Counted from the stretch's first letter, positions 4,057-20,871 are shown. The stretch is DNA of 30,138 bases from Bdellovibrionales bacterium (GCA_050246815.1 JBFWVI010000015.1:30983-61120); one strand, 5' to 3'. Made by a program: numbers and translations. The notes: a model not told the origin generated them from the sequence alone.

Positions 4057-4569
4057 GTGCAAAAAATCATTCTAAGCCGATTTTTAATAATGACCGCCAC
4101 AGGTTTAATCCTTGGAGCCTTCTTTCAAAACTGCGGTTCTTATACGGCCATCAAATCGGGTTCGCCCCTGGTTTACAAAATCGACAATGGTCAAACGTTC
4201 ACCGCACAGGCTTTGTCGTCTGATGATCGTCAGGCTGTCTGTCGCGGGCAACACAATTGGCATTGTGTGATCCATCAGTTTCGGCCTGACAATACCCAAT
4301 CAAGCACACCCGGCGAAGTCTGCAACGGCGATTTTTGTGTGGATGCCACGTTGGTCCACCATGGCTCGGCAGAAGCTTTGGGCTCCTGCCGAGATTGCAC
4401 CGAGGCCGATGGCCAACCGGGCGGTCGATATCATTATGATGAAGTCTATTGTGGAAATCAGAACATCACCCAAGAGGGATCTGTGACAGCGGCCATCGTG
4501 GCCAACTCTTCGATCCCACAGCTCGCGTTGGCGGAGGCCCTGAATATATGTTTAATTGCAGCCGAATAG
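4057..4569 (+). CDS. Cys-rich lipoprotein of unknown function
   Basis: GTG 4057 is preceded by GAGGGG. The signal peptide ends in FFQNC, a lipobox type common in Bdellovibrio-like organisms. The mature part has 8 further Cys. Confidence 0.7.
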   Translation: MQKIILSRFLIMTATGLILGAFFQNCGSYTAIKSGSPLVYKIDNGQTFTAQALSSDDRQAVCRGQHNWHCVIHQFRPDNTQSSTPGEVCNGDFCVDATLVHHGSAEALGSCRDCTEADGQPGGRYHYDEVYCGNQNITQEGSVTAAIVANSSIPQLALAEALNICLIAAE

Positions 4570-5243
4570 TTTTTGCGTTGCTGATGGTGGCCTTTGGCTT
4601 TGAGGCCGCGGCCCATGTGCGTTTTACGGTTCCGGTGCCGCGCTCGCAGGCGGATGGGTTAAAGACACCTCCTTGTGGGAATATCCCGCGCACAGCCCAA
4701 GTCACCGAGCTTCGCCCCGGACAAGTGATGCAAATCAGCTGGACCGAGGTCATCAATCATCCGGGCTTTTTTTCGGTGGACATTTCGCAGGCCAATGACC
4801 AGAACTTCCAAGAGATCTGGCGTTTTGAAGACAACCAAAACACAGTCGGTTCACACAACTTCACCGGCACCATCACCATTCCCAACATCACTTGCGCCAA
4901 CTGCACGATTCGCCTTATTCAGCACATGCTTGAAGATCCCAACATGCCTTCGCTTTATTACTCTTGTTCGGATATCTCGATCGCGGCAGACAGTGGGGGC
5001 ACGGTGACTTTGCCGTCGCAACCCGGTGGCAATGGCGACTTGGGTGGCTCAGGCGGAAAATTAGGTAAACCAGGTCAGATGGCCGGTGGCTGTGGTCTGG
5101 TGGCCCGCACGAGCGATCGCTCGGGTGGTGGTCCCACGCCGCCGATGGTGGGCTTTATTTTGATGAGCCTGATACTGCCGCTCATCACCTGGCACCGACT
5201 AGGCCATGTGCCCAGTCGGGTTACTGCCAGGCGTCGTCGCTAG
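4548..5243 (+). CDS. SCE4755-family polysaccharide monooxygenase-like (LPMO-like, His-brace) protein with C-terminal membrane anchor
   Basis: GGAGG precedes ATG 4548. The signal peptide ends AAA and the mature protein starts with His (HVRFTVP). Motifs PCG, W-x-E-x-INHPG, CxNCTIRLIQ and YYSCSDI. Gly-rich linker, GGCG, TM helix and RRRR tail. Confidence 0.75.
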   Translation: MFNCSRIVFALLMVAFGFEAAAHVRFTVPVPRSQADGLKTPPCGNIPRTAQVTELRPGQVMQISWTEVINHPGFFSVDISQANDQNFQEIWRFEDNQNTVGSHNFTGTITIPNITCANCTIRLIQHMLEDPNMPSLYYSCSDISIAADSGGTVTLPSQPGGNGDLGGSGGKLGKPGQMAGGCGLVARTSDRSGGGPTPPMVGFILMSLILPLITWHRLGHVPSRVTARRRR

Positions 5244-5794
5244 AACCAATATTTCAAAGCCCCATTTAAAGAAAACGTGTCGGCACCCGAATTACTGACG
5301 AACAGGTAATTGGCGTTGGCGCCCACGGTGAACTCGCGCCGTTCAACAGTAGAACCTGCGATAGGCACGTCAAAGCCACCCAGCACGGCCAAACCCATGC
5401 GGGTGTCGGTGTCATCGCCGCTGGTGTCGCGGACCACTCCCGCACCGGCGCCTAAAAAAGTATGACGAACAAAGGTGTTCCCACTGAAGTTGTAAGTGCC
5501 TCGGGCCAGCAAGTGGCTTCGATCCAAGTCGGCCTTGCCCTGACCGTTACTGGAAAATGTTGAAAACTCCAAAGCTACGCCAATCGGCACATAGGGTTGA
5601 AATCCGATCTCGGCCCCAAACTCACCGGCGGTATTGTAATTTTCGTTGGTGTCTGAAAGCCCGGCGCGAACGCCGAAGTGGGGTTTCATGGCCTCAAGTG
5701 AGCCGGCCTCGGCCGGGGTCGGCATCGTCGAGGTTTGGGCCTGCGCCACAGTAGTAAGAATCAGTAGCGTCAGGGCCAAGAATGGTTTTTTCAT
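5240..5794 (-). CDS. Small outer-membrane beta-barrel protein
   Basis: AAAGGAG RBS, signal peptide (AQA), alternating amphipathic strands, C-terminal LKYWF beta-signal. Confidence 0.8.
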   Translation of the reverse strand: MKKPFLALTLLILTTVAQAQTSTMPTPAEAGSLEAMKPHFGVRAGLSDTNENYNTAGEFGAEIGFQPYVPIGVALEFSTFSSNGQGKADLDRSHLLARGTYNFSGNTFVRHTFLGAGAGVVRDTSGDDTDTRMGLAVLGGFDVPIAGSTVERREFTVGANANYLFVSNSGADTFSLNGALKYWF

Positions 5795-7370
5795 AGTTTC
5801 TCCTTTGATGGTTTGAGATCGCGGTTGGGATTTCGAGATTTGAATCTGAAAGTGGTTTAAGGTCTTGGCTGGCTGGCCCTTCGATCACTTTGCCATGGCA
5901 GTCGAAACGCGAGCCGTGGCAGGGGCAGTCCCAAGATTTTTCAACGCCGTTCCAATGGACCAGGCCACCTAAGTGGGGGCAGGCGGCGGAGTAGGCTTCC
6001 AGATCGCCCCGTTCGTTGCGGAACAGAGCCACTTTCCGTAAGCCATAGTTGATGACGGCCCCGTCATTGTAAGCCAAATTTTCAATCACTTGAGCCGATT
6101 GTGGTGAAATCCAATCGGCGTATTGCATGGCCACATTGGCGTTTTCCTTGATGTACTCAGTCAGTGCGCGCAGACGAAAGCGTGAGGGTTCATAGACATG
6201 AGCCCAAGAGTTCTCAAGTCGCAAAATCTGGTCGCGCACTAACAGCGCGCCCACCGTGGATTGGCTCAGGCCTGTTCCCGACTGTCCGGTGATCACATAG
6301 ACGTTTTCATTGTCCAAGGGGTTGTGGCCCAAGTAGGCCAAGCCATCGATAGATTCCATGATTTGGCCCGACCAGCGGTAAGCCACTTCGCTGGCAAACG
6401 GAAAGCGACTTTCGGTCCATTCTCGCAAACGCGCAAAACAATCCTCGGGGTGGTCATTTTGCCCGGTTTTATGATCCTCGCCACCAACAATTAAAAGATC
6501 GTGCAGTGAAGAATAGGGATGCGTGCGCAAGTAGTGGTAGGGTGTGCCGGTGTCCCAATAAAGGCCAAGGTGCACTTCATTTTTCGGAATTTTATAAGCC
6601 AAAACGTAAGAGCGATAAGGTGCTTGCTTAGTATGAATTGCGAAAACATTATTGATCGGCGTGTTTGTGGCCACCACCGCAGCGTGGGATTTGATCGAAT
6701 GGCCAGACGCCGTAATCACCGTGGCGCTTTTGCCGCCTTGAATCGTGGTGACTTGGCTGTGACAAAAGATGCGGCCTTTATTGGCCAACACTTGCTTGGC
6801 CAAGCCGCGCAGGTATTTTAGGGGATTGAGCTGGATCTGATTGGGAAAGATCAAGCAGTTGCCGGTTTCAAAGGTGGGCAGTGGCGCTTGCGAAGCTGCG
6901 TGCACATCGTTTAAACCGGCCCGGTGCGCGGCGCTCAATTCGCGCGGCAGCTCATCGTCGTTCAATTGAGCGGAATTTTCAAAGAGGTAACCACTGACTC
7001 TTTTGTAATCGCAATCGATCGCACTTTGAATCAGGATTTGGTCGACCGTATTCAGTGCCGCGACCTGGCTTTGGGCCACCAGGCGGGTGTCGGCGACGCC
7101 GTGCAACTCTTCAAGACGATGATAGCGAGTGTCCAAGGCGGCGGTGACATGGCCGGTGCTTAAGCCGGTTTGGCCCTCACCCAAATTTTGGCTTTCAAGC
7201 ACGCAGACCTTTTGGCCGCGTTCGCTTAGCAAATAAGCCGTGGTCAATCCGGCAATGCCCGCACCCACCACGCACACATCGCAGATCAAATTGTCACTCA
7301 AGGCCGGGCATGCCGGCATTTTGACGTCATCATGCCAGGGTGTTGATGTGGACGCGATCGAAGTTTTCAT
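5694..7370 (-). CDS. FAD-dependent oxidoreductase (DAO family) fused to a C-terminal Rieske 2Fe-2S domain (YhfW-like)
   Basis: DVCVVGAGIAG Rossmann motif. Rieske motifs CPHLG and WDCPCHGSRF. Start taken at ATG 7370 (MKTSIAS). Confidence 0.9.
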   Translation of the reverse strand: MKTSIASTSTPWHDDVKMPACPALSDNLICDVCVVGAGIAGLTTAYLLSERGQKVCVLESQNLGEGQTGLSTGHVTAALDTRYHRLEELHGVADTRLVAQSQVAALNTVDQILIQSAIDCDYKRVSGYLFENSAQLNDDELPRELSAAHRAGLNDVHAASQAPLPTFETGNCLIFPNQIQLNPLKYLRGLAKQVLANKGRIFCHSQVTTIQGGKSATVITASGHSIKSHAAVVATNTPINNVFAIHTKQAPYRSYVLAYKIPKNEVHLGLYWDTGTPYHYLRTHPYSSLHDLLIVGGEDHKTGQNDHPEDCFARLREWTESRFPFASEVAYRWSGQIMESIDGLAYLGHNPLDNENVYVITGQSGTGLSQSTVGALLVRDQILRLENSWAHVYEPSRFRLRALTEYIKENANVAMQYADWISPQSAQVIENLAYNDGAVINYGLRKVALFRNERGDLEAYSAACPHLGGLVHWNGVEKSWDCPCHGSRFDCHGKVIEGPASQDLKPLSDSNLEIPTAISNHQRRNYEKTILGPDATDSYYCGAGPNLDDADPGRGRLT

Positions 7371-8136: not shown

Positions 8137-9180
8137 ATGATTAAAACAAAAGCTTACGCCGCCCAATCAGCCACTTCGCCACTTCAACCCTTTCAGTTTG
8201 AGCGTCGCGACCCGCGACCTGATGATGTGGTCATCGAAATTGCTTATTGTGGCATTTGCCATTCTGACATTCACACTGCACGAGGTGAATGGGGGCCGAC
8301 GGCTTACCCATGTGTCCCAGGCCATGAAATCGTGGGTCGTGTGATTCAGGTGGGCAAAAAGGTCAAGCGCTTCAAAGTCGGTGACCTTGCCGGTGTGGGT
8401 TGCTTTGTGGATTCGTGTGGAAAGTGTCCCAACTGCAAAACCGGTGAACAGCAATTTTGCCAAAAGCATACGGCTTTTACCTACAACAGCACCGAAATGG
8501 ACGGCAAAACCCCGACTCAAGGCGGTTACTCCAGCCACATCACGGTCAAAGACCAGTACGCTTTGAAAATCAAAAAGGGTTTGCCGTTGGATCGTATTGC
8601 GCCGCTTTTGTGCGCGGGCATCACGACCTATTCGCCGCTCAAACGATACGGCACTAAAAAAGGCAAAAAAGTGGGGGTTGTGGGTTTGGGTGGCCTTGGC
8701 CATATGGCTATCAAAATCGCCAAAGCCATGGGTGCGGAAGTGACGGTGTTTAGCACTTCCCCCGGCAAACAGGCTGACGCCAAAAAGTTGGGCGCAAAAA
8801 ATTTCGTAATCAGCACCGATGCCAATAACTTTGCGGCACATGCAGGCAAATTAGATCTGATCATCGACACCGTTTCAGCCAAACATGATTTTTCGCCGTA
8901 CCTAGGGTCTTTGAAGATGGACGGCACTATGGTTTTGGTGGGCGCAGCTCCCGAACCCAGTCAAGTCAGCGCCTTTGCCTTAATCATGGGTCGTAAGCGC
9001 CTGACCGGGTCGCTGATCGGCGGCATCAAAGAGACGCAAGAGATGTTGGATTTTTGCGCGAAGAAAAAAGTTCTCTCGGACATTGAGCTGATCCCGGCCA
9101 GCCAGATCAACGAAGCGTATGAGCGCACGATTAAAGCACAGGTCAAGTACCGCTTCGTGATCGACGCGAAGACTTTTTAG
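8137..9180 (+). CDS. NAD(P)-dependent zinc alcohol dehydrogenase (cinnamyl-ADH/YahK-like)
   Basis: CGICHSD, GHEIVG, structural zinc Cys cluster, GLGGLG and YRFVID. Confidence 0.95.
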   Translation: MIKTKAYAAQSATSPLQPFQFERRDPRPDDVVIEIAYCGICHSDIHTARGEWGPTAYPCVPGHEIVGRVIQVGKKVKRFKVGDLAGVGCFVDSCGKCPNCKTGEQQFCQKHTAFTYNSTEMDGKTPTQGGYSSHITVKDQYALKIKKGLPLDRIAPLLCAGITTYSPLKRYGTKKGKKVGVVGLGGLGHMAIKIAKAMGAEVTVFSTSPGKQADAKKLGAKNFVISTDANNFAAHAGKLDLIIDTVSAKHDFSPYLGSLKMDGTMVLVGAAPEPSQVSAFALIMGRKRLTGSLIGGIKETQEMLDFCAKKKVLSDIELIPASQINEAYERTIKAQVKYRFVIDAKTF

Positions 9181-9611
9181 TTCGCGTCCAGATGCTTCAA
9201 AATATGCGGGATGTCCGCTTTTTCCAAATCCTTGGCGATGAAAGTCATATTCTTTGCCGCCACCGCGCTGACTTGCTTTTTAATTTTGCCCAAAAGGTGC
9301 GGATTCGCGAAGACAGTCACATGTTGATAGAGCTTACCATGCTTGGCCGTTCTTAAAAGTTTGGCCAAAGTGTGGGCAAAATGGTCGGCGACCACTTCGG
9401 TGTGAGAATTGTGCGGCGCTAGCCGATGCGGTGTTTTGCTGCCGGCCCACTTGGCGTAACTTTGACCGAACTTGTCGGTTTTAAAATCATGCTCGCGACG
9501 GCGCCCCTTTTTATTGACCAGCGTGCGTTGCCATTTAAGCGGCAGACTTTTGGCATCACGCTTAAAGATTTTGGCTTCAGCGCGACTGGCAACCATAACC
9601 CATTCTTTCAT
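9177..9611 (-). CDS. Host attachment protein family (release-factor-like)
   Basis: Pattern WVMVASRAEAKIF...FA..LA..L...VFANPHLLGKI...IAKDL. AGGAG RBS. Confidence 0.8.
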   Translation of the reverse strand: MKEWVMVASRAEAKIFKRDAKSLPLKWQRTLVNKKGRRREHDFKTDKFGQSYAKWAGSKTPHRLAPHNSHTEVVADHFAHTLAKLLRTAKHGKLYQHVTVFANPHLLGKIKKQVSAVAAKNMTFIAKDLEKADIPHILKHLDAN

Positions 9612-9667: not shown

Positions 9668-10126
9668 TTATTGAACTGCGATTTGTTTGGCGGCGGTGCT
9701 TTTTGTTTTGGGAACACGGATTCGCAAAACACCGTTTTTAAAATTGGCCTCAATCTTCTTTTCGTTGATTGGTTCCGGTAGGGTGAAGCTGCGCACGTAA
9801 GAACCGTAATTGATTTCGGACAAGTATTGCTTGTCGGTTTCTTCTTTCTTTTCTTCTTTGCGCTCGGCGCGAACGGTCAGTCGGTCGCCGTCCACTTCGA
9901 CTTTGACTTCTTCTTTGTCGATGCCGGGCAAATCAAAATTCATTTGGTAAGACTCGGCGTCTTCTTTGACTTCGCACGAGGGCGAAAAAGGGAACTCGGA
10001 GCCCTTGGCACCGTTGCGCTCGCTGATCATTTCATTCAAAAGACGGTCAAAGCTGCTCTCCATTCGGGCCATTTCGCGGAAAGGATTAGAGGTTTGGCGG
10101 CCAAACCAGCGTTGCAGTCCTGACAT
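9668..10126 (-). CDS. Hsp20/alpha-crystallin small heat-shock protein
   Basis: Motifs DLPG, YGSYVRSFTLP and FKNGVLRIRVPK. AAGGAG RBS before ATG 10126. Confidence 0.95.
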   Translation of the reverse strand: MSGLQRWFGRQTSNPFREMARMESSFDRLLNEMISERNGAKGSEFPFSPSCEVKEDAESYQMNFDLPGIDKEEVKVEVDGDRLTVRAERKEEKKEETDKQYLSEINYGSYVRSFTLPEPINEKKIEANFKNGVLRIRVPKTKSTAAKQIAVQ

Positions 10127-10165
10127 ATTGTACTCCTTCTGTGAGGTTGTTTGTGCAGTGGGAGT

Positions 10166-10181
10166 AGCAAGCCGGATGCCG
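10166..10181 (-). promoter_or_regulatory. Putative sigma54 promoter of hsp20
   Basis: The minus strand reads CGGCATCCGGCTTGCT, 40 nt upstream of the ATG. Confidence 0.7.
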
Positions 10182-10271
10182 ACCGCAAAACACACGTCAA
10201 ATGCAACAGTTTTGATTTAAGTGAGGGGAGGGAGACAAAATATCTCAACCTGGCGGGCAAAATGTCACGCG

Positions 10272-10943
10272 TTACACATCGGCTTCACGTAATGAAATTT
10301 TGCCGTCGATCAGATAAATCTCCCGATCGGCTTGTCTGGCATAGCTGGGCTCGTGCGTCACCAGGGCGATTGTGGTGCCATGCTGCTGGTGAATACGTTT
10401 TAAGATCGACATCACCACGGCGCTGTTTTTAGTGTCTAAATTACCGGTGGGTTCATCGGCAAAAAGGTAGCGGGGACGCAGCACCAGCGCGCGCGCGATG
10501 GCCACGCGCTGCTGCTGGCCTCCTGACATTTGCCCCGGGAACTTGTGCTTTTGATCAACGACATCCAGTTCTTCCATCAAAGCGATGGCCTCGGGAAATA
10601 ATTTTTTTTCAAGGCCCAGATTGCGTGCGGGCAGCAAAACATTTTCAAGGGCTGTCAGCTCGGGCAGCAAATAATGAAATTGAAAAACAAACCCGACTTT
10701 TTCATTGCGAAAGCGGTGAAGGTTGTCGACCGATAAGCGCGCCACATCTTGTCCATCGATCAACACGCGACCCTGGCTGGCGTGATCCAAAGTGCTGATA
10801 ATGTAAAGCAAAGTACTTTTACCGCTGCCCGAGCGACCCGAAATAGAGACGAATTCGGCGTCTTTGATTTTGAAATCCAAGCCATGCAGCACTCGCTGCG
10901 GCGGTTGGCCAAATTCTTTGATCAGCCCCTGTCCTTCGATCAT
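10272..10943 (-). CDS. ABC transporter ATP-binding protein (LolD/MacB type)
   Basis: Walker A GRSGSGKST, signature MSGGQQQR, ADEPTGNLD, VTHE. ATGA overlap with the permease stop. Confidence 0.95.
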   Translation of the reverse strand: MIEGQGLIKEFGQPPQRVLHGLDFKIKDAEFVSISGRSGSGKSTLLYIISTLDHASQGRVLIDGQDVARLSVDNLHRFRNEKVGFVFQFHYLLPELTALENVLLPARNLGLEKKLFPEAIALMEELDVVDQKHKFPGQMSGGQQQRVAIARALVLRPRYLFADEPTGNLDTKNSAVVMSILKRIHQQHGTTIALVTHEPSYARQADREIYLIDGKISLREADV

Positions 10944-12184
10944 GATTCCGCCCGAATGATGTCCATGGGGGTCATGCGGCTGGCCTCCCAAGCGGGGATC
11001 AGGCTGGCGATCAGCGAGGCCACATTGGCGGTGATAAACGCGGTCACATAAATCGACCAGTCATAACTGATGCGCAGGTTGTGGCTGCCGCCGATTTCAA
11101 AACCAAAGTCGATGGAGCCAAACCAAACACAAAGCCAAAAACCCAAGATCATTCCCAAAAATCCACCGGCCAAGCCAAGCAAGGTGCCCTGATACAAGAT
11201 CAATTCCAAAATTCGCCGTGGCGAGTAGCCAATGGCGCGCAAGATGGCAATCTCGCGTCTTTTTTGACTGATCATGATGGTTAAAACATTGTAAATGCCG
11301 AACGCGGCCACAATTAAAATCGCAGTGGTGATAAAGTAGCGGGTGAAGTCTTGCACCTTAATCACTTCCATAAAGGCCTTGTTGGCCTCTTGCCAGTCTT
11401 CCACTTTGTCGCGAGTCATGGCCTGCCAAGAGTCAGCCAGATCGGTGGATTTGTCGATGTCCAGCAAAGACACGGCGATGGCGCTGACCTGGCCAGGGCT
11501 TTTTGCCAAAACCTGCACATTGTCCAAATGAGCAAAGGCCACCGAATCATCAAACTGCTGATTGCCATAGTGGACGATACCCGCCACTTTGTAAGGCCTG
11601 GGCGCAGTGCGCCCGCTGCTGACATTTAAAACTTGGTCTAAGCGCGCGCCCAATTTTTTGGCCACGCCACTGCCGATCACCAGATTGTTGGCGCCAGAGC
11701 GCAGTTTTAAGAAGGAACCCTCTTTCATGTATTTTTCGACACTGGTCAGGCGGGCATGGCGCTCTGGGATCACTCCCAAAAGTCCAACCGAAACCGAAAA
11801 TTTTCCGCTCGTTAAAAGCGCGTTGGTGCTTAGGCGCGGCGAAAAGTCAAAAACCTGGGGATCGCTTTGCAATCGATCGACCCAGCCCTGGTAGTGCTGC
11901 AATTTGGTTTCTTCGCGTTTGCCCCCGGGGGGCAGTCGCCAAAGCAGTCGCGGATTTTCGCCGTAAAGAGCGGTGGTCACTTGCTGTGCTTCAATATTTT
12001 GCTCTGAGCCAGAAATCAGGATGTGGGCGGTGTTGTTGAGCAACTGCTCCGAGATATAAGCCCGCATGCCCAATTGCACCCCAGAAATGCTGACATAAAG
12101 CAAAGTGCCAAAGCTGATGCCCAGCAAGATCAAGAGCGTTTGTTTTTTGCGCGCCATCAACTGACGCCAGGACAAAAAGAACAT
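10940..12184 (-). CDS. ABC transporter permease (MacB/FtsX/LolC-E family)
   Basis: N-terminal TM, large periplasmic domain, KRREIAILRAIG, three C-terminal TMs and PAWEASRMTP. Confidence 0.92.
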   Translation of the reverse strand: MFFLSWRQLMARKKQTLLILLGISFGTLLYVSISGVQLGMRAYISEQLLNNTAHILISGSEQNIEAQQVTTALYGENPRLLWRLPPGGKREETKLQHYQGWVDRLQSDPQVFDFSPRLSTNALLTSGKFSVSVGLLGVIPERHARLTSVEKYMKEGSFLKLRSGANNLVIGSGVAKKLGARLDQVLNVSSGRTAPRPYKVAGIVHYGNQQFDDSVAFAHLDNVQVLAKSPGQVSAIAVSLLDIDKSTDLADSWQAMTRDKVEDWQEANKAFMEVIKVQDFTRYFITTAILIVAAFGIYNVLTIMISQKRREIAILRAIGYSPRRILELILYQGTLLGLAGGFLGMILGFWLCVWFGSIDFGFEIGGSHNLRISYDWSIYVTAFITANVASLIASLIPAWEASRMTPMDIIRAES

Positions 12185-12185
12185 T

Positions 12186-12962
12186 TTATTCCTTGGGCAC
12201 TAGGATTTCGTCGTCGGGCAAAAGCTCGCCACCCGTAATTTCAGCGGATAGGCCATCGGTCAATCCCACTTCGACTTTAATTTTACGGCTGTGGCCTTTG
12301 CGGTTCACCAGCAAGGTGCCGCTGCGAAGCGCTTTATAGGGCACTAAAGTGCCCTTGACCTGGCCGATTTCAACCGACACGTCCGCTGTCATGCCGGGCA
12401 AAATGCTGGCATCCAAGTTGTCCACTTTGATGTTCGCTATGAATTCGTCGTCCTTGGGGAAGATTGCAGTCACCTGGCCAGCTAGAGTTTGGTTGCGCAA
12501 AGATTCAAAAGAAACTTTGGCCACTTGACCGGGACGTATGCGCAAAGCGCTTTCTTGTTCTAAAGAAAGTTCCAGATAGCGGTCCTTTAAATTTTCTAGA
12601 CGTAAAATAGTCGAATTCGGCAGGGCTGTTTCACCTTCAAAAAGCGAAATCAAACTGACTGTCCCGGCAAAGGGGGCACGAAAAACAGCGCTGGATTCAA
12701 GCTGAATTAGCCGTTGGCCCTTTTCGACTTGATCGCCCTCGCGCACAAAGCGCTCTTTGACCGTGGACAGCACGCCCACCTTCACTTCGAAGCGCTGGTT
12801 AGATTTGACCTTGCCCAAGCCATACACCGCTTCGGTGATCTGGCCTTCGGCAGGTTTGACGCGATTGTATTTACGGTTCTGCGCAGTCGTGCCATACCAG
12901 GCGCCCGCGCCCAAAAGGATAAACAAAGGGACCAAGATCAGGGCCCATTTCAAACGACTCAT
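12186..12962 (-). CDS. Efflux periplasmic adaptor (membrane fusion protein), short form
   Basis: GAGG RBS before ATG 12962 (MSRLKWALIL). Lipoyl-like VREGDQVEKGQ...RAPFAGTV with essentially no alpha-hairpin between the halves. LPGMTADV. Confidence 0.85.
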   Translation of the reverse strand: MSRLKWALILVPLFILLGAGAWYGTTAQNRKYNRVKPAEGQITEAVYGLGKVKSNQRFEVKVGVLSTVKERFVREGDQVEKGQRLIQLESSAVFRAPFAGTVSLISLFEGETALPNSTILRLENLKDRYLELSLEQESALRIRPGQVAKVSFESLRNQTLAGQVTAIFPKDDEFIANIKVDNLDASILPGMTADVSVEIGQVKGTLVPYKALRSGTLLVNRKGHSRKIKVEVGLTDGLSAEITGGELLPDDEILVPKE

Positions 12963-13063
12963 AGTTACCTCTTCATCAAGGCGTATATCAAAAGTTAGGC
13001 GGGTGGGTAACAAAGAGGTTTTTTTACGGGGGGCGCCAAAGATCATATGTTGCGTAGATCGAT

Positions 13064-14233
13064 CTAAAATTGCCGTAATCGCCAAAATGCGACCAAACTG
13101 ACCAGGGCTTCCAGCAAACCGATGATCAAAAACAATTGCCCAAGGCTGGGCCCATTTGGCACGGCACTTAGCGCGCCACCTAAAAACACTGCCAGCGGGT
13201 AAAGCCCTTGGCTCAACAAGCGCCGCGCGCCAAAGACCACACCGCGCTCCTCGGGGGCAGTCAATTGCACCCACAGGGTTTGATTGGCCGAATTAATCAC
13301 AGGCATCATCAATTGGCGGATCGCCAACCCCACCGCCCACAAGCCGATCAACCCAGAAGCGCCCACCAGGATGCGACCGGCGATCGCCCCGATCAAAGTT
13401 CCCCCCGCGATCACCGATCCCAACCGCCGCTTGAGCGGCACCAGCAGCACCAACAAAGCGCCCAGGGTCAGGCCCACAGCCGAGAGCGTGTTGACCATAG
13501 CCAAACTTTTTTTATCGCCTGCGGTCGCGGTCAACACCAGGGCCGCCACTAGGCCGGCCAGCAAGCCATGAAAAAAATTGGCCCAACAAAAATGCAGTTG
13601 CAGGTGGCGAAGTTGGGGGTGACCCAGGATTTTGTGAATACCTGCGCCCCAGCTTTGCTTGGCACGCGCTGGGATTTCGGGAAAACTCACTGTTTTTAGC
13701 GCGAACAAAGCCAACACATAACTGATCGCGTCCATCCACAAAATGCCCTTGAAGCCCATTTTCTCATAGGCGATCACGCCCAAAACCGGCGCTAAAATCA
13801 AAGGGCCGTTTTCAATCAGCGCCACCAGTCCTTGGCTTCGCATGAAAAATTCTGGCCGCGCCAACAAAGCCGTGCTGGATTGAAAGGCCAAACCCAGCGC
13901 CGATTCGACCGCGCCAGTTAAAAATAAAAACATCATTAGGGCACTGAGGTTGAAAAGATCAAAACGCAGCAGGGTGCCGGCCAATATAGTCAGCACTAGC
14001 AAAATCAAATTGCTGCCGGCAATGACATTTTTCAGCGGAAACCGGTCCACCAGGTGGCCGGCGAAAAGGCTTAGATAAATATTGGGCATCAACTTGGCAA
14101 ACACGGCGATGCTCAGCCAATAGGGGCTTTGGGTTTGTTCATAGACCCAAAGCGAAACTGCAAAGCCGGTCAAACCGCTGCCCAACAACGACACCAGTTG
14201 GCCCAGCCAAAGCGTCAAAAAGTTTCTAGACAT
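13064..14233 (-). CDS. MFS transporter (macrolide-efflux/DHA3-like exporter)
   Basis: MSRNFLTLWLGQLVSLLGSGLT start, GHLVDRF motif, ERGVVFG and many TM helices. The start overlaps the stop of the HExxH gene. Confidence 0.9.
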   Translation of the reverse strand: MSRNFLTLWLGQLVSLLGSGLTGFAVSLWVYEQTQSPYWLSIAVFAKLMPNIYLSLFAGHLVDRFPLKNVIAGSNLILLVLTILAGTLLRFDLFNLSALMMFLFLTGAVESALGLAFQSSTALLARPEFFMRSQGLVALIENGPLILAPVLGVIAYEKMGFKGILWMDAISYVLALFALKTVSFPEIPARAKQSWGAGIHKILGHPQLRHLQLHFCWANFFHGLLAGLVAALVLTATAGDKKSLAMVNTLSAVGLTLGALLVLLVPLKRRLGSVIAGGTLIGAIAGRILVGASGLIGLWAVGLAIRQLMMPVINSANQTLWVQLTAPEERGVVFGARRLLSQGLYPLAVFLGGALSAVPNGPSLGQLFLIIGLLEALVSLVAFWRLRQF

Positions 14234-15020
14234 GAACGCCTTTCGCGAAAGCGTGGATGTTTTGTTGGCCTGTGGCCGTAAAGTAGCGGGCATTTTCACT
14301 TTGTGAAAGCCGCTCGATCAAAAATTCAAAGGACTTTTGACCTTCTTGGGCCGCGTGAGTCACTCTTTCAAGGTCTAAATCTTCTGCGCCCGCAGTTGCC
14401 AGCAGTTGGCGCCGCCAGTTGAGCAGCCCCGCATAAACGCCGGCGGCATGGTAGCAGCGGTCCAGCTCCCAAAATTGATTGCGATTTTCTTGATGCTTAC
14501 GCCAGGTGATGTGCACTTTGGGCGCTGTGCGGGCGTCAAAGTCGTCGCTTAAGATTTCACCGCGTAAAATGGATTGGTTGATTTCTTGGTGGATGGCCTC
14601 GTGGTAAAGGTTTTCCGCCAAAGCCCAAGTTGAAGGCGCCGAAAACAAAGTGTTGGGCGGGATGTGCACCAAGGCTTTGTTTGAAATAAAAACGCAGCCC
14701 GGCCAATTGGGGAATGAGGCCGAGGTAATACGTTCATCCTCACCCCAGTACTCGCGGCGTAGCTCCATCCAAAAGACAAATCGTATGTGACGTTGAGCAT
14801 AGGCTGCAATCGCCGGCTCCACTTGGTGCAAGTGTGCCCAGGCTTCACCGATCAAATCCAAGTGGGCGTCGTGGGCGACGCTTAAGCGGTGTGAGGGCAG
14901 GGGCAATTGGGCAAGGCCGTTTTCAAGATCGGGTTGAATCAGGCGCGGCGCCAAGTGCCCGGGCAGGGGTGAGCTTTGGCGCAGCAGTTGCTTGTGATGG
15001 GGTGTGGGCAGAGTCAACAT
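14226..15020 (-). CDS. aKG-HExxH family protein (putative Fe(II)/2-oxoglutarate-dependent peptide beta-hydroxylase)
   Basis: Motif order TSASFPNWPGCVF ... LAENLYHEAIHQ ... ITWR ... YHAAGVY matches the HExxH-plus-distal-His architecture of this family. GGAGG RBS. Confidence 0.75.
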   Translation of the reverse strand: MLTLPTPHHKQLLRQSSPLPGHLAPRLIQPDLENGLAQLPLPSHRLSVAHDAHLDLIGEAWAHLHQVEPAIAAYAQRHIRFVFWMELRREYWGEDERITSASFPNWPGCVFISNKALVHIPPNTLFSAPSTWALAENLYHEAIHQEINQSILRGEILSDDFDARTAPKVHITWRKHQENRNQFWELDRCYHAAGVYAGLLNWRRQLLATAGAEDLDLERVTHAAQEGQKSFEFLIERLSQSENARYFTATGQQNIHAFAKGVHV

Positions 15021-15022
15021 GG

Positions 15023-15397
15023 TTACCTCCCAATGTCCGAGCCGCGTTGGTCGCCCAACTTTTCCAGCTTCATAAAAAAACGCGGCACCGCTTCGGGAAT
15101 CAGTTGGTGGGTGCGCTTGACCAAAAATTCAATTTTTTCAAGTGTGCTCAGTTGCTGCGTGGGCACCAGCTCTGCCAGGCGCAAACGAATTTTGTTCAGC
15201 TTGGCCCGTGCAGTCAGATGGTTTTCAGAGTTCAGGGTGCTGTGTGGGGCGACTCGCCCCAGGCGTTCCAAGCGCTCCTGGGGCGAGAGGGTGGGATCAG
15301 GCAGAAGTTCTTCAAGCCGGCGGCTCACGGCCATCAGCTCGCGGCAGACTTCATCAAAAGACTCTTCATGGGCTTCAGGTAGTGTGATGGTGATCAT
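15023..15397 (-). CDS. Hypothetical 124-aa protein with internal R-L-x-x-hydrophobic-hydrophobic-P repeats
   Basis: GGAG RBS. The stop is 2 nt before the HExxH start. Repeats RLEELLP, RLGRVAP, RLAELVP and RTHQLIP. Confidence 0.7.
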   Translation of the reverse strand: MITITLPEAHEESFDEVCRELMAVSRRLEELLPDPTLSPQERLERLGRVAPHSTLNSENHLTARAKLNKIRLRLAELVPTQQLSTLEKIEFLVKRTHQLIPEAVPRFFMKLEKLGDQRGSDIGR

Positions 15398-15418
15398 GAA
15401 AAACTCCGCCCGGGTGGG

Positions 15419-15571
15419 TTATTTGGTTTTTTTGGCTTTACGACGGATCGCCTGTTCTTCGCGTGACAAAGCTTCAAGGTAGGCCTCGATTTCTTTGGGA
15501 TTGCGCGAGCGGCGGGCGAAGTCGGGGACCATGTGGTCCAAGCGCTGGGTCAAACGATCGATGATTTTCAT
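15419..15571 (-). CDS. 50-aa peptide, candidate RiPP precursor (absent from the supplied ORF track)
   Basis: AAGGAG RBS 7 nt before ATG 15571. Translation MKIIDRLTQRLDHMVPDFARRSRNPKEIEAYLEALSREEQAIRRKAKKTK, stop TAA 15421-15419. First gene of the operon. Confidence 0.75.
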   Translation of the reverse strand: MKIIDRLTQRLDHMVPDFARRSRNPKEIEAYLEALSREEQAIRRKAKKTK

Positions 15572-15620
15572 AAGTGTGCTCCTTTTAGGGCCAGGTTCAT
15601 CCTGGCTGCAGGGGCACTAT

Positions 15621-15636
15621 CGCAAGGACTGGACCG
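15621..15636 (-). promoter_or_regulatory. Putative sigma54 promoter of the peptide-HExxH operon
   Basis: The minus strand reads CGGTCCAGTCCTTGCG (GG-N10-GC with TTGC), 50 nt upstream of ATG 15571. Confidence 0.5.
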
Positions 15637-15732
15637 GGTTTTGGAAAGCCTCAACACGAATTTACAGGCAGCTGAGGGGCAAGGTGTCCGGATTTCGGAT
15701 CCCTTTGTCCGGGCTTATGGACGGCAGGGGCA

Positions 15733-15761
15733 TTGCGGCAAAGGGGCGGCCATGCTAGATT
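15733..15761 (+). promoter_or_regulatory. Putative sigma70 promoter of ssrA
   Basis: TTGCGG-17 bp-TAGATT with an extended -10 TG at 15753-15754, 14 nt upstream of the mature 5' end. Confidence 0.55.
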
Positions 15762-15775
15762 GCAACGGTCTCTTT

Positions 15776-16131
15776 GGGGGCGACATGGCTTCGACGCGGG
15801 TCGTGAAACTTCAGGAGCATGCAGGGGATGGTATGAGGACCTCTTTAAAAACATACCAAATGTATTCGGCAATACCGAACACGCACTTGCTGCTTAATTG
15901 ACAGCAACGCAAATCTGGTTGTCGGCGATGCGACCAGGCTAGCGCAATAATGTCGCACCGGCTGCAGGGTGTTTTCTCCAGGCCACTGCAGCCTAAAAAT
16001 TCTGGGGGAGGGGCCAAGGGAAGTCTGTCGCTGGACGTCCTCTGGCCGACCTAAAATAAGCGACTAAGCATGTAGCCCGCCTGAATGTGGAACTCTTGCG
16101 GACGGGGGTTCAATTCCCCCCGCCTCCACCA
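15776..16131 (+). ncRNA. ssrA: Transfer-messenger RNA
   Basis: 5' GGGGGCGACATGGCTTCGAC. 3' T-arm GGGGGTTCAATTCCCCC followed by CGCCTCCACCA, with the G3-U alanine identity pair. The tag ORF 15868-15897 encodes GNTEHALAA-stop. Confidence 0.97.
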
Positions 16132-16331
16132 TTTCTACATTGAAAAATCAGTCCATCCATCCTCAATGCTATTTGAGGGACTTATTAGGGGATTGAATGA
16201 AACAAAAGCTTGCTGGTGTCACTGCCGACCTACTTGGTCTCGATTCAGCAATTTGGTTAATCGCAATCATTACAGCGTTCTCAGGATTTTTTGTCGCATT
16301 TCGTATGAAGGAGACACTCAAAACCTGCATT

Positions 16332-16376
16332 GAAACACCAGTTTTAGAGCCCAACTAAATTTGAGACTGGTGTTTC
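16332..16376. terminator. Long stem-loop between ssrA and the convergent marC stop
   Basis: GAAACACCAGT...ACTGGTGTTTC is a perfect 11-bp inverted repeat, extendable to 17 bp with G-U pairs on the plus strand. Confidence 0.55.
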
Positions 16377-16381
16377 TGGCC

Positions 16382-17038
16382 TTAATTTACACTCTGGACG
16401 ATCTGTGAAACGAGCTTTGTAGCTCCTTCGACAATAAGTTGAATTGAGAGCGCGGAAAGAATTAGTCCCATCAGTCTCTGAACAACTGAAACGCCAGACC
16501 GTCCAATGGCTTTTGCGATTACTGATGATGAACGCAAAATAAAATACGAAAGAACGAAAGTAAAGGCTATAGCCGCAGCGATCACCGAAAAATGGAGTGT
16601 GTGATTCGATTGGTGATCAGTTGAAAAAACCATGATCGATGTAATCGCACCTGGTCCAGCAAGGAGCGGAATAGCAACTGGAACAAAGCTGATATCTTCT
16701 CTTTCTTGTGGTGCAGAAAGCTCCGCTGCTGAACACTTGCAGTCGTCAGCTTTTCCTCTCAGCATCTCAAGAGCAGTTAGCAGTAATAGTAGTCCACCTC
16801 CGACTTTGAACGCATTCAGATTCAAACTCAATGCGCTAAACAAGTATGTGCCGAAGAGGGAGAACAGCAAGAGAACTGCGGCTCCAGTGACTGATGCCTT
16901 CTTAATCACGGCATGGCTTGCCTCAGGTGTGTAGCCTCTTGTTAAAGAAATAAAAGCAGGAACCACACCGATAGGATCGACGATCACTATCAACGTGGAA
17001 AAGACGACAAAAAAGCGATTTAAAAGTTCGAGATCCAT
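16382..17038 (-). CDS. MarC family integral membrane protein
   Basis: Motifs IVDPIG, FKVGGGLLL, FVPVAIPLLAGPGAI and RLMGLIL. Confidence 0.93.
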   Translation of the reverse strand: MDLELLNRFFVVFSTLIVIVDPIGVVPAFISLTRGYTPEASHAVIKKASVTGAAVLLLFSLFGTYLFSALSLNLNAFKVGGGLLLLLTALEMLRGKADDCKCSAAELSAPQEREDISFVPVAIPLLAGPGAITSIMVFSTDHQSNHTLHFSVIAAAIAFTFVLSYFILRSSSVIAKAIGRSGVSVVQRLMGLILSALSIQLIVEGATKLVSQIVQSVN

Positions 17039-17089
17039 ACTAGTTTGCCACTTCGTTTTGATATGCCATTTTCGCCCTCGATATTTAAG

Positions 17090-17119
17090 AAAGCCCGCGG
17101 CTCAAGTGCCGCAGGCTTT
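17090..17119 (-). terminator. Probable terminator after copZ
   Basis: AAAGCCCGCGGC-TCAAGT-GCCGCAGGCTTT hairpin just after the copZ stop, with T-rich flanks on both strands. Confidence 0.6.
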
Positions 17120-17124
17120 TGGGA

Positions 17125-17331
17125 TTAGAGCTTCCGTGCGCCAAGGACTGGGTATCCGGCCTCCTCAATAAGAGCGGTAATTTCCGTCTGCTCACGATTA
17201 CTCTTCACCTTCACTGTTTGCGATTTGAGGTCCACTGAAACTTCGACATTCGGATCGATTGATTTCAGAGCGTAGCTCATCGAATTGGCGCAACTACCAC
17301 AGGTCATGCCACTTACTTTGATCTCATACAT
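17125..17331 (-). CDS. copZ: Heavy-metal-associated (HMA) copper chaperone
   Basis: 68 aa with GMTCGSC and IEEAGY. Divergent from copA, with a CueR box upstream. Confidence 0.9.
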   Translation of the reverse strand: MYEIKVSGMTCGSCANSMSYALKSIDPNVEVSVDLKSQTVKVKSNREQTEITALIEEAGYPVLGARKL

Positions 17332-17390
17332 TTGAGGTCTCCTTTAGTTTTCTCCAACCGACTTCGATCAGAGATTTTCTTAAAGATCGT

Positions 17391-17413
17391 CCTTCCAGTC
17401 ATTGGAAGGTCAA
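17391..17413 (-). promoter_or_regulatory. CueR operator/promoter for copZ
   Basis: CCTTCC-N7-GGAAGG (17391-17409) overlapping a minus-strand -35 TTGACC. Confidence 0.85.
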
Positions 17414-17493
17414 GGTGGTTTTTTCAAATTCTCAAAAAAAGACACCCTCCTGCGTTGGAAGGTTGTAGTTCGAACTATTTTTTGTGGCCGCTA

Positions 17494-17524
17494 TTGACCT
17501 TCCAATGGTTGGAACCCGTAACCT
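17494..17524 (+). promoter_or_regulatory. CueR operator/promoter for copA
   Basis: TTGACC-19 bp-TAACCT with CCTTCC-N7-GGAACC in the spacer, the classic MerR-type geometry. Confidence 0.9.
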
Positions 17525-17560
17525 GATCTCGTTCACTAATAAATAGAAATGGAGATAGTT

Positions 17561-19858
17561 ATGCTGCAAGCAGAATTTCAAAGAGACAATAAACGCGAAT
17601 TTGACGTAGCAATCGAAGGAATGACTTGCGCCTCGTGCGTTTTCCGAATTGAGAAATCAGTATCTAAAGTTCAAGGGATTGATTCAATATCAGTTAACCT
17701 TGCGACTGAAACCGGAAAGGTAATTTTAGCTGACGACCGATTGAGTGAAGACGATGTCATTCGCGCAATTGGTAAAGCTGGCTATAAAGCTGAGCTGATT
17801 TCAAACGAGGTCGCGCCAAAGACTGACAATAAAGCCGCCGCTCTCCGCCAGGAGCGAACACGCCTATATATCGCGATTATTCTTTCAACTCCACTAGTCC
17901 TTCCAATGTTACTTGAACCGTTTGGTATTTCGGCAATGCTGCCTGCGTGGGCGCAGCTTGCGCTTGCCGCTCCTGTTCAGTTTTGGTTGGGCGCTCGGTT
18001 TTACAAGGCCGGTTGGTCGGCTCTCAGGGCTCGATCTGGAAATATGGATCTTTTGGTATCGATCGGAACTACAGCTGCATTCGGATTAAGTCTTTATTAT
18101 ATGTGGAAGAACTTCGGTGAGTCCCACGCTCACGGCGGTGCGCATCTTTATTTTGAAAGTGCAGCCGTCATAATTACGCTTGTTCTTCTCGGGAAATACC
18201 TTGAATCGCGAGCAAAACAACAGACATCTGCTGCGATTAAAGCGCTCCAAGCTCTCCGACCCGACTCAGCCATTCTCGTATCAGGAGGACAAGAGCTTGA
18301 AGTTCCTTTGAGCCAAATTAGACTGGGCGATCAAGTTCGAATCCGCCCTGGAGCAAAAGTGCCGGTTGATGGAATTGTGATCGAAGGCGAAAGCCAAATT
18401 GATGAATCTCTGATTACAGGTGAAAGCCTTCCAGTAGCAAAGATTGCTGGCGACAAAGTCACAGGCGGATCGGTCAATACTGACGGGCGATTACTTGTTA
18501 GAACAACAGCATTAGGTTCAGAAACAACACTGGCTCGAATCATTCGCCTAGTCGAAAGCGCTCAAGCAGGCAAAGCACCTATTCAGCGCCTCGTTGATAA
18601 AGTTAGCTCCGTGTTCGTTCCGGTCGTGATGCTCATTGCACTTGTAACGTTAGTTGGCTGGGGATTAACGACAGGTAATTGGGAGCATGCTATTCTTAAC
18701 GCTGTCGCTGTACTTGTCATCGCATGTCCATGTGCTTTGGGCCTAGCCACACCGACCTCAATTATGGTCGGTACAGGTCTCGCGGCGAAAGTCGGAATTC
18801 TCATAAAGGATGCTGAAGCGCTTGAGCTGACTCACTCGGTTACGGCTGTTGCATTCGATAAAACCGGTACACTCACAGAGGGAAAACCACGGCTCAACAA
18901 CTTAGTTTCGTTCGATGGTAATTCATCGCGATTACTGCGATTAGCTGCCGCAGTTCAGCTCGGAAGTGAGCATCCACTTGCTAAAGCGGTCGTTCAAAAA
19001 GCTGAGCAGGATCAAGTAAGCCTTCCGGAAGCTACTTCAGTTAAGGCACTTCCTGGAAAAGGTGTTGAAGGCACGGTGGAAAGCCAACGAATCGCAATTG
19101 GCACCAAAAAGCTCATGATTGAAAGAGGTATAGACATCTCAAAGCATGAGTACAAAGAAACAAAGTTCTTAATGGCTGGCGAAACGGTCGCTTACATTTC
19201 GGACCTTGATTCACGACTCGTTCTGGGCGTGATGAGTTTCTCTGATCGGATCAAAGATTCTGCACGAGAAACCGTAGCGGAGCTTATCACTCGCGGTATT
19301 AAGCCAATCATGATCACCGGCGACAATCAGCAGAGCGCTATGCGTGTAGCGCGGGAGCTGGGAATTGCAGAAGTTCGTGCAGAAGTTTTGCCAGAGGAAA
19401 AATCTCAGGTGATCGAAAAACTTAAGGCTGAGGGCTATCGAGTTGCGATGGTTGGTGACGGTATTAATGATGCTCCGGCTTTAGCGGCCGCTAACGTGGG
19501 TTTTGCAATGTCGACCGGAGCTGATGTGGCAATGCACTCAGCAGGCATTACACTGATGAATGGCAACCCTCTTCTGATCCCCGATGCAATCGAAATATCA
19601 AGACGGACTTACTCGAAAATTCGTCAGAATTTGTTTTGGGCCTTTATTTATAACGTCGTTGGCATTCCTCTAGCGGCGGCAGGCTTACTTACTCCTGTTG
19701 TTGCAGGCGCTGCGATGGCGTTTAGTAGCGTAAGCGTGGTTTCAAATTCGCTATTGCTCAAAAGGTGGAAAGCAGCTAGCCGCAGGCCAGATGAGATGAA
19801 AATCTCTGGGCCTGCATACGAAGAGTGGACGGCAATTGAAGCTCGTCGAGGTATGTAA
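17561..19858 (+). CDS. copA: Copper-translocating P1B-type ATPase
   Basis: HMA motif [40 protein letters not shown] and MAFSS. GGAG favours ATG 17561 (alternative 17549). Confidence 0.95.
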
Positions 19859-20871
19859 TGGGCATACAAGTTTTAGTTAAAAATTTGAATCAAGATTTTA
19901 CTGCCGCCCCGAATGAAACCGTACTCACGGGAGCTTTGCGCAACGGCATTAATTTTCCTCACTCCTGCCAAAACGGGAGATGCGGAATGTGCAAATCAAG
20001 ACTTCAGAGCGGAGAAGTTGATCATCTTGCTCATAACAAATTCACATTGACCGACGAAGAAAAAGTATCGGGACTCATTCTAGCCTGCAAAGCCATTCCA
20101 AAAACTGACGTAGTAGTTAGCTGGGTTGCTGAAGAAGAGGAATTTGCTAACTCACAATCCATTGAAACAAAGGTAGTCCAGAAAAACCGACTAACACACG
20201 ACACATGGCGAGTTGTACTCGAAGCTGAATCCCACAAGTTCAAATTCAAACCTGGACAGTACTCATTGCTGAACATTACAGGTTTCCCGCCTAGAAATTA
20301 TTCTATGTCTAATCAGCCAAATGACCGTCAGCTTGAATTCTACATCCGCCAGTTGCCTGGTGGCCTCGTAAGTAACTACGTCAATGAGACATTAAAAGAG
20401 GGGGACTCGGTAACAGTCATAGGGCCGCTAGGAAGTTCGTACTTACGAGTAGTGCATGCAGGTCCAATTTTGCTTGTCGCTGGCGGCTCTGGGATTGCGC
20501 CAATAAAATCGATTTTAGATGCAGCGATTACTAACGGAATGCGACAAGCGATCTACTTGTATTTCGGGGTCCGCGAAGAACAAGACGTTTACCTGCTCGA
20601 TCATTTCCGAAAACTAAGAGAACAGTTTCCAAATTTTGTTTTCAATATAGTGGTTGATCGCGGCTCGACGAACAAAGCATATCGATCAGGTCGACTCAAC
20701 GACGCAATTAAAATTGATTTCCCAGCCTTTCACGGCAAGTGGAACGCATATTTAGCGGGTCCACCCCAAATGGTGGAGAGTGTCTCAAACTTAATCATTA
20801 TGAATGGCATTTCAAAATCGACTGTGTGGTCAGACCCATTCGTTACAACGGAACATGGAGCAGTGAAATGA
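19858..20871 (+). CDS. 2Fe-2S ferredoxin / FAD-NAD(P)H oxidoreductase (AscD / oxygenase-reductase type)
   Basis: SCQNGRCGMC...LAC ferredoxin motif, RNYS, GPLG, AGGSGIAP and YLAGPPQMV. TAATG overlap with copA. Confidence 0.9.
   Translation: MGIQVLVKNLNQDFTAAPNETVLTGALRNGINFPHSCQNGRCGMCKSRLQSGEVDHLAHNKFTLTDEEKVSGLILACKAIPKTDVVVSWVAEEEEFANSQSIETKVVQKNRLTHDTWRVVLEAESHKFKFKPGQYSLLNITGFPPRNYSMSNQPNDRQLEFYIRQLPGGLVSNYVNETLKEGDSVTVIGPLGSSYLRVVHAGPILLVAGGSGIAPIKSILDAAITNGMRQAIYLYFGVREEQDVYLLDHFRKLREQFPNFVFNIVVDRGSTNKAYRSGRLNDAIKIDFPAFHGKWNAYLAGPPQMVESVSNLIIMNGISKSTVWSDPFVTTEHGAVK

Follow-up and report, generated by a model that had tools for sequence, protein, structure and literature searches.

A conserved four-gene RiPP-like cassette with an aKG-HExxH protein as its only recognisable enzyme in a Bdellovibrionales bacterium

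The aKG-HExxH enzymes share a recently recognised oxygenase fold that has been described as reminiscent of zincins (PMC12636437). Characterised members beta-hydroxylate His, Asp, Phe, Gln or Pro in the precursors of peptides that are made by ribosomes and modified after translation (RiPPs) (PMC12636437, PMC13060819), and two of them, PflC and PosC, combine Gln beta-hydroxylation with oxidative backbone cleavage that removes a C-terminal ARMD sequence (PMC12636437). ChlH, the HExxH part of ChlBH, is fused to a radical S-adenosylmethionine (SAM) cyclophane synthase; stand-alone enzymes have been published as BpmH, PflC/PosC and PesO (PMC12636437, PMC13060819). The present analysis concerns a further stand-alone HExxH protein, encoded in a 30,138-nucleotide stretch of a Bdellovibrionales bacterium genome (GCA_050246815.1, JBFWVI010000015.1:30983-61120; hereafter the window) within a four-gene cassette at 13064-15571 on the minus strand. 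This cassette is a real, conserved and undescribed variant of aKG-HExxH RiPP-like systems. Its HExxH protein matches the ChlH fold and conserves the HExxH, W-R, H and R positions, and its four components turn up again in other phyla, in three arrangements of the genes as well as in a fused version. On balance, the HExxH protein, a predicted oxygenase, probably modifies a small peptide bearing a conserved motif, and the transporter of the major facilitator superfamily (MFS) encoded beside it would export the product. The cassette consists of the following open reading frames (ORFs):

15419-15571, minus strand: 50-aa peptide, supported by the ORF and a Shine-Dalgarno-like sequence
15023-15397, minus strand: 124-aa helical repeat protein
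14226-15020, minus strand: 264-aa HExxH protein, with HEAIH at residues 140-144
ATG 14233 to stop 13064, minus strand: 389-aa MFS transporter, overlapping the stop of the HExxH gene by 8 nt

Its predicted structure places the HExxH protein, as a divergent member, in the aKG-HExxH (ChlH) fold class. An AlphaFold2 model computed from a 79-row alignment (pLDDT 90.4, pTM 0.89) retrieved the HExxH domain of ChlB (8s5f; E 2.6e-8, query TM-score (TMq) 0.61) as the first Foldseek match in the PDB and SjiH (22ob; E 2.4e-5) as the second, while the top protease reached only E 0.21 and TMq 0.19. Alignment with VIA-align gave the same ranking: Z 19.0 and a root-mean-square deviation (rmsd) of 2.8 over 211 aligned residues for 8s5f, Z 17.3 for 22ob, 7.0 for the next row and 5.0-6.0 for zincin proteases. 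An ordinary zincin protease, which the first-pass annotation of the window had named as the outcome that would speak against its proposal, is thus strongly disfavoured by the predicted fold (Z 5.0-6.0 and Foldseek E of at least 0.21, against Z 19.0 for the ChlH match), and the protein models as a ChlH-type aKG-HExxH fold instead.

Sequence models place the protein less firmly. A Pfam search gave no match, and the one NCBIfam match, to the model for aKG-HExxH peptide beta-hydroxylases (TIGR04267), stayed under the curated cut-off of 40 bits (E 3.6e-4, 20.6 bits). The protein is therefore best regarded as a divergent relative outside the trusted range of the model, assignable at the fold or superfamily level only; of the two fold checks suggested in the first-pass annotation, the Foldseek comparison bore out the fold and the profile match fell short. 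An exhaustive search for the family found 227 representative clusters at E<=1e-3, 139 at <=1e-10 and 22 at <=1e-30, against ten family proteins, including the query, from a word-indexed search. Among the 79 aligned homologues, 69 hit TIGR04267 with E<=0.01, the lowest value being 2.5e-16. The 79-row family profile finds the ChlH sequence (8s5f_A) at E 1.9e-5 with HExxHQ, PWR and LHA in register, where an earlier 10-row profile had found no match among PDB sequences. Across the same alignment H140 and E141 are invariant (79/79 each), as are W173 and R203 (79/79 each), and H144 (78/79), R174 (77/79) and H191 (76/79) are nearly so. The Arg of PWR and the His of LHA are presumably the 2-oxoglutarate and iron ligands of ChlH. 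By analogy, the window protein is likely an Fe(II)/2-oxoglutarate oxygenase, its activity, metal and cosubstrate all being predicted from this resemblance. Its identity to ChlH is 16%, however; no radical SAM enzyme is fused to it or encoded next to it, its TIGR04267 score is under the cut-off, and the accompanying peptide is devoid of a cyclophane motif. Identity to SjiH, whose PDB entry is named 'SjiH-Ni', is 15%; no paper on SjiH was found in the literature search.

The neighbourhood of the gene is conserved. Twenty-five related loci were collected, seven from species genomes and 18 from metagenomes, spanning actinobacteria and metagenomic sequences. A 124-like protein is encoded in 24 of them, an HExxH homologue adjoins in 18, and a homologue of the window MFS transporter adjoins in 11. 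The synteny of peptide, 124-aa protein, HExxH protein and MFS transporter that the first-pass annotation had proposed to look for thus exists as a conserved set, in several orders. The cassette reaches Streptomyces, Nocardiopsis, Lentzea, Allokutzneria, Microbispora and uncultured bacteria, and points to an undescribed peptide product. Gene order is peptide-124-HExxH-MFS, peptide-HExxH-124-MFS (L005) or peptide-HExxH-MFS-124 (L015, L026), and in other loci the peptide is fused to the 124-like protein; this variation implies that the linkage is functional and not merely historical. Both small ORFs are real genes, since HExxH genes of other phyla likewise have homologues of them, or the motif, at their side; a chance origin of the 50-aa and 124-aa ORFs is ruled out by conservation. 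Family scans found no radical SAM or other tailoring enzyme in the cassette, in agreement with the initial view of the HExxH protein as its only recognisable enzyme, and no other enzyme family recurring in the flanks of the related loci.

The window transporter matches MFS_1 (E 7.2e-16) and TIGR00900 (E 6.6e-34, below the cut-off of that model). Its homologues in the cassettes of the 11 loci are 28-36% identical (E 1e-23 to 1e-51), apart from one at 25% (E 1.6e-6). An MFS gene is present in 11/11 loci with a separate peptide gene and enough flanking sequence, versus 0/4 fused-type loci with flank (L018, L021, L022 and L023). Where an HExxH or MFS gene is missing, the contig in most cases stops too soon. 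True exceptions are L009, L011, which has a TPR protein downstream, and the four fused-type loci just named, which have the HExxH gene but no MFS gene in their flanks. In a tree of HExxH proteins the fused-type loci cluster together (support 92/87), as do the actinobacterial separate types (90/92), neither group at the 'starred' support level; L012 and L013 were omitted as too short. L009, from Pontibacillus litoralis, carries at 4801-6219 a 98-aa truncated homologue of the 124-aa protein after two MFS fragments (175 and 171 aa), with neither an HExxH gene nor a motif peptide at the locus, and looks, from these gene remnants, like a decayed cassette in a Firmicute.

The 50-aa peptide contains the motif LTQRLDHMVPD at residues 7-17 (nt 15521-15553), followed by a 33-aa tail. 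Searched against proteins of 27-88 aa, the peptide found only itself; its relatives were identified by translating the related loci. There the pattern x-T-x-R-L-D-H-x-[VI]-x-[DE], 11 residues with a constant T-x-R-L-D-H core, occurs in 20 of the 25 loci as well as the window, always on the cassette strand (25 matches, against 0.0 in 20 rounds of shuffling). A further copy in L013, with Y at position 1, brings the total to 21/25. The four loci without the motif are L009 (decayed), L011 (157 nt upstream only), L017 and L027 (outside the family). Position 10 is Pro in 16/20 loci (L023 being dropped as identical to L022) and T, K or I in four. The motif has a single copy in the genome of the window.

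Three forms of the motif were observed. It ends a small ORF in 12 loci with a single motif and a separate ORF (L004, L005, L007, L008, L010, L012, L013, L014, L015, L016, L020 and L026), where 0-12 residues follow it and where the ORFs of L014 and L015 stop exactly at its last Asp; the tails of L025 (27 residues) and the window (33) are longer. It is repeated in tandem in two Streptomyces loci, as a 42-nt unit in 3.0 copies with 96% matches (L006) and a 51-nt unit in 3.1 copies (L003). Lastly, it is fused to the N-terminus of the 124-like protein in L018, L019, L021, L022, L023 and L024. In the actinobacterial loci variable N-terminal stretches precede the motif, which is C-terminal; in the window and the fused clade it is N-terminal and has a candidate follower. 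Residues 5-36 of the window peptide are 50% identical, over 32 residues, to the N-terminus of the fused-type protein of L021. The 50-aa and 124-aa ORFs of the window lie in one frame (15397-15571, minus strand), separated by one TAA and six codons. Read-through of that TAA would yield a fused protein like those of the fused clade; there is no sign that it occurs.

The 124-aa protein has 20 homologues, itself included, at 71-38% identity, among them proteins of Streptomyces megasporus, Nocardiopsis alkaliphila and Lentzea. Near-constant in the family are LLPDPSLSP-x-ERLERLARVVP, ELVP and a C-terminal KLE-x-LGD-x-R-x-x-D-x-G, which in the window read LLPDPTLSP..ERLERLGRV, ELVPTQQLS with QLIPE, and a C-terminal KLEKLGDQRGSDIGR. 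Its description as a repeat protein holds: residues ~18-47 align to ~64-93 (hhalign probability 95.4%, E 2e-8), and a third unit is weak (34.9%). The repeats resemble degenerate R-L-x-x-hydrophobic-hydrophobic-P units of the motif, without the Asp-His pair. AlphaFold2 predicts five helices joined at 'hydrophobic-hydrophobic-Pro' motifs and a disordered tail at 117-124, in a poorly defined tertiary arrangement (pLDDT 77.9, pTM 0.48). The ESM Atlas model has a pLDDT of 0.46. The protein has no Pfam, NCBIfam or PADLOC family, no ESM Atlas look-alike and no Foldseek match in the PDB (best E 2.1). A defence system was considered and rejected, as PADLOC gave no family. The family varies most in the stretch after LGD-x-R, where, for example, the window has GSDIGR and actinobacteria have STDVGVSPR-x-WQ, while two proteins bear Cys-rich extensions and the fused clade bears unrelated short tails. 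Some 124-like proteins (L011 158-595; P0020 and P0021) carry a Cys-rich C-terminal extension after S-D-x-G-R, for example ...SDVGRACDCSECARIRLSTPPTT. By their sequence, such extensions hint that the C-terminal tail of 124-like proteins may itself be a variable core.

Two published systems come closest in organisation. Like the window enzyme, PflC/PosC are stand-alone HExxH proteins whose genes neighbour those of a precursor and transporters but no protease gene, and in their precursor a short tail comes after a conserved motif near the C-terminus (PMC12636437). PflA has a long conserved N-terminal region that may be the counterpart of the 124-aa protein. Their clusters, however, add an MNIO-nitroreductase and a GNAT protein where the cassette has no second enzyme, and their precursor is of the NHLP type with a Gln run and ARMD, in place of T-x-RLDH-x-V-x-D (PMC12636437). 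Moreover, the long conserved protein of the cassette is a separate gene in most loci. PesO is a stand-alone tailoring enzyme of the nitrilobacillin pathway that beta-hydroxylates a Pro just ahead of a conserved C-terminal R(V/T)DN, resembling the V-P-D of the cassette motif; it differs in working with an MNIO enzyme and, in the pes cluster, also with M16 peptidases and an enzyme resembling Asn synthetase (PMC13060819). The Pro of the cassette motif, by contrast, is not constant (16/20 loci). BpmH reportedly is a stand-alone tailoring enzyme of a biphenomycin-like pathway that works beside an MNIO enzyme. To our knowledge, every characterised aKG-HExxH member works beside another tailoring enzyme, be it radical SAM, MNIO or other. 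The first-pass annotation had stressed the lack of a radical SAM enzyme, which is true of the cassette but is not unusual in itself, since BpmH, PflC/PosC and PesO have been published (PMC12636437, PMC13060819); the unusual feature is that no second enzyme class is present. Its suggestion that the system might be undescribed stands, in that no paper naming the cassette, the motif or the 124-aa protein was found in a search of main texts that left most subscription journals outside its reach.

The favoured reading is built on the linkage of a candidate precursor gene to a modifying enzyme, as seen in RiPP clusters (motif in 21/25 loci and the window, HExxH gene in 18/25). By analogy with characterised members, the aKG-HExxH enzyme would be the sole tailoring enzyme and would oxidise the motif x-T-x-R-L-D-H-x-[VI]-x-[DE]. 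As the site of beta-hydroxylation we would favour the Asp6/His7 pair or else Asp11, since these positions are constant and Asp and His are reported substrates, while Pro10 is replaced in four loci. The motif would be the RiPP core, since it ends small ORFs, is triplicated in tandem, and is accompanied by an MFS gene in all separate-peptide loci with enough flank versus none of the fused ones. The 124-aa protein may act as a follower or scaffold in trans, and in cis in the fused clade; alternatively, its C-terminal LGD-x-R-x-x-D-x-G tail, which is conserved and disordered, may make it a second substrate. The MFS transporter would export the small product.

Several observations weigh against this reading. 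The HExxH protein scores 20.6 bits where TIGR04267 demands 40. Conservation is higher in the 124-aa protein than in the enzyme, both to the nearest relatives (71% versus 47% identity) and to actinobacteria (~50% versus 36-41%), and this is unusual for a mere leader or follower. No peptidase family was found in the cassette or in the flanks of the related loci, although multi-copy or leader-bearing peptides need cleavage; for some RiPPs the releasing protease is encoded elsewhere (PMC12636437). The fused clade has no adjoining MFS gene, even on the long contigs L021 and L022. Finally, the constancy of T and RLDH is partly imposed by the search pattern; the same RLDH units had been returned earlier by a looser pattern and a BLAST search.

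Some of these observations are accommodated by an intracellular protein-modification or regulatory module, a minority reading that we regard as unlikely though a serious competitor. Here the HExxH protein would hydroxylate the 124-aa protein and its N-terminal motif unit, be that unit fused or split off, the functional product would then be the modified protein itself, such as a switch dependent on oxygen, iron or 2-oxoglutarate, and the MFS transporter would be a co-regulated or controlled partner and no peptide exporter. Such a role agrees with the 124-aa protein being the best conserved of the components and with its five confidently predicted helices, and also with the lack of an encoded protease. 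In L018, L021, L022 and L023 the motif is part of the 124-like protein and no MFS gene adjoins, which fits an intracellular role at least in the fused clade. Full-length precursor has also been detected in cell lysates of a related Pseudomonas system (PMC12636437). However, the tandem triplicate motifs and the ORFs ending 0-4 residues past the motif look precursor-like, the MFS gene accompanies every separate-peptide locus with enough flank, and the models of the 124-aa protein are weak, with an ESM Atlas pLDDT of 0.46 and, at an AlphaFold2 pTM of 0.48, no defined tertiary fold.

It is improbable, by a further step, that the HExxH protein mainly cleaves, oxidatively as in PflC/PosC or hydrolytically, freeing motif units instead of hydroxylating side chains, for instance by trimming the short tail past the motif or by parting tandem units. 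PflC and PosC oxidatively remove a C-terminal tetrapeptide, and PflC can hydrolyse the same bond (PMC12636437). The short variable tails past the conserved motif, the tandem units that need parting, the missing protease gene and the invariant Glu of HExxH (79/79) would suit such an activity. Yet the ORFs of L014 and L015 end at the last Asp of the motif, so that tail removal cannot be a general purpose; all characterised members also hydroxylate; and nothing in the sequence resembles the ARMD site.

A bolder extension of the favoured RiPP reading would make the cassette a new RiPP class with an aKG-HExxH oxygenase as its only, class-defining enzyme and a ribosomal metallophore as its product. 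Beta-hydroxy-Asp and beta-hydroxy-His are chelating groups of many non-ribosomal siderophores. Under this proposal the Asp-His pair, and perhaps the terminal Asp, of a T-x-R-L-D-H-x-V-P-D core would be beta-hydroxylated, an enterobactin-exporter-like MFS transporter would export the beta-hydroxy-Asp/beta-hydroxy-His peptide, and the 124-aa protein would be a core-mimicking scaffold, a split follower presenting the peptide in trans. All of these parts holding together is a slim prospect.

The first-pass annotation had described seven minus-strand ORFs, and all were found in their places, with the gaps it gave (21, 2, -8 and 101 nt) following from the ORF coordinates. Beyond the cassette these comprise three genes of an ATP-binding cassette (ABC) transporter:

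12186-12962, minus strand: HlyD-type adaptor (Pfam/NCBIfam)
10940-12184, minus strand: FtsX/MacB_PCD permease (Pfam/NCBIfam)
10272-10991, minus strand: ABC ATPase (Pfam/NCBIfam)

The transport proteins are as first described, Pfam and NCBIfam identifying the MFS transporter, the HlyD-type adaptor, the permease with MacB_PCD and FtsX domains and the ABC ATPase. Matches of the adaptor to HlyD_D23 (E 7.2e-13), of the permease to FtsX (E 4.1e-20) and MacB_PCD (E 4.8e-14) and of the ATPase to ABC_tran (E 3.7e-33) in Pfam give the trio the make-up of a MacAB/LolCDE-like exporter, an HlyD-type adaptor with a MacB_PCD/FtsX permease and an ATPase; the equivalog models LolCDE, MacB and DarD all score below their cut-offs. 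The likeliest start of the ATPase is ATG 10943 (MIEGQGL...), overlapping the permease stop, and not TTG 10991; an orthologue in G004, a genome of another genus of the same family, has the same 4-nt overlap with its permease.

Membership of these genes in the cassette, which had been put forward with reserve, was not borne out, and the trio is likely a separate operon, to judge by gene neighbourhoods. An adjacent homologue of the trio is found in 0/25 related loci: L027, a locus without the cassette, gave the sole permease match, and the sole ATPase match was an unrelated gene in L006. G004 encodes adaptor, permease and ATPase at 54-61% identity in a compact stand-alone operon, divergent from a P-type ATPase gene, and gave no HExxH match. 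Among 2.5-kb windows, the G+C content (GC) of the cassette, 0.546, stands at the 97.9th percentile and that of the ABC genes, 0.518, at the 66th; the genome value is 0.507. Against such independence, the ABC genes follow on the cassette strand after 101 nt, with no terminator-like site predicted in the gap (12962-13064), and co-transcription with the cassette in this genome is possible. Least probable of all the readings is that the seven genes form one unit whose product exits through both the MFS transporter and the tripartite ABC exporter: the common strand, the 101-nt gap without a predicted terminator and an ATPase resembling DarD-/MacB-type exporter ATPases, though below cut-offs (NF038007: 179.8 versus 375 bits), speak for it, but it has to contend with the trio's absence beside all 25 loci, its presence in G004 and the difference in GC.

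The cassette itself was found in 0/60 genomes of the same family or order. In a sample of the phylum, 4/401 genomes gave a match, this one included; the other three matches are weak and of another subtype. No vertical history of the cassette can thus be traced, and the ABC evidence, the GC difference and this patchy distribution together suggest that the four-gene cassette arrived separately beside an existing ABC operon, which the adaptor, permease and ATPase genes would likely form. Three genomes of the same order contain a second cassette type (L028 in G280, L029 in G373 and L030 in G332). It consists of a small ORF ending ...RRLLNVIPVDIEALLKELDEEV, a 442-455-aa protein with membrane and ABC-like ATPase parts, and a 217-238-aa HExxH protein that matches TIGR04267 at E 5.8e-8 in L030 and 1.7e-3 in L029 and gives no match in L028. 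L030 also encodes a 2OG-Fe(II) oxygenase. The I-P-V-D of these peptides recalls the V-P-D of the window motif.

Shine-Dalgarno-like sequences precede the first three cassette ORFs: AAAAGGAG for the 50-aa peptide, GGAG for the 124-aa protein and GGGAGG for the HExxH protein. An extra in-frame GTG at 14299, upstream of the MFS ATG 14233, is also open. The putative promoter of the first-pass annotation was not recovered: a sigma-70 scan of the minus strand gave nothing upstream of 15571, and neither promoters nor terminators were counted more often in 10000-16400 than in shuffled sequences. Among sequencing runs, three DNA runs from a single study contain the stretch, two of them possibly its source, and no RNA run containing it was listed. 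Divergent from the cassette, 204 nt upstream of the 50-aa ORF, lies a tmRNA gene (15776-16131, plus strand; Rfam 171.9 bits; tag GNTEHALAA). Beyond its 3' end, 16132-30138 has a GC of 0.45-0.47 versus 0.507 for the genome and encodes MarC, an HMA protein, a Cu-type P-type ATPase, MerR regulators, a multicopper oxidase and a recombinase fragment (24828-25280); this region is probably a copper-resistance island integrated at ssrA. On the other side, neither a Host_attach/baeRF family-12 protein (9177-9611, minus strand) nor the product of 4449-5243 (plus strand), which matches BIM1-like and LPMO_10 copper-binding domains, marks the organism as a predator.

For the aKG-HExxH family, the cassette offers an HExxH protein as the only enzyme, a sharply conserved motif, candidate substrates in single, triple and fused forms, and a partner protein more conserved than the enzyme. 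With the HExxH protein alone, a sharp motif, natural substrate variants and a conserved partner, it would be a clean system in which to study how aKG-HExxH enzymes recognise their substrates and what chemistry they perform, and its naturally split and fused variants constitute a ready-made test of whether the 124-aa protein acts as a follower in trans.

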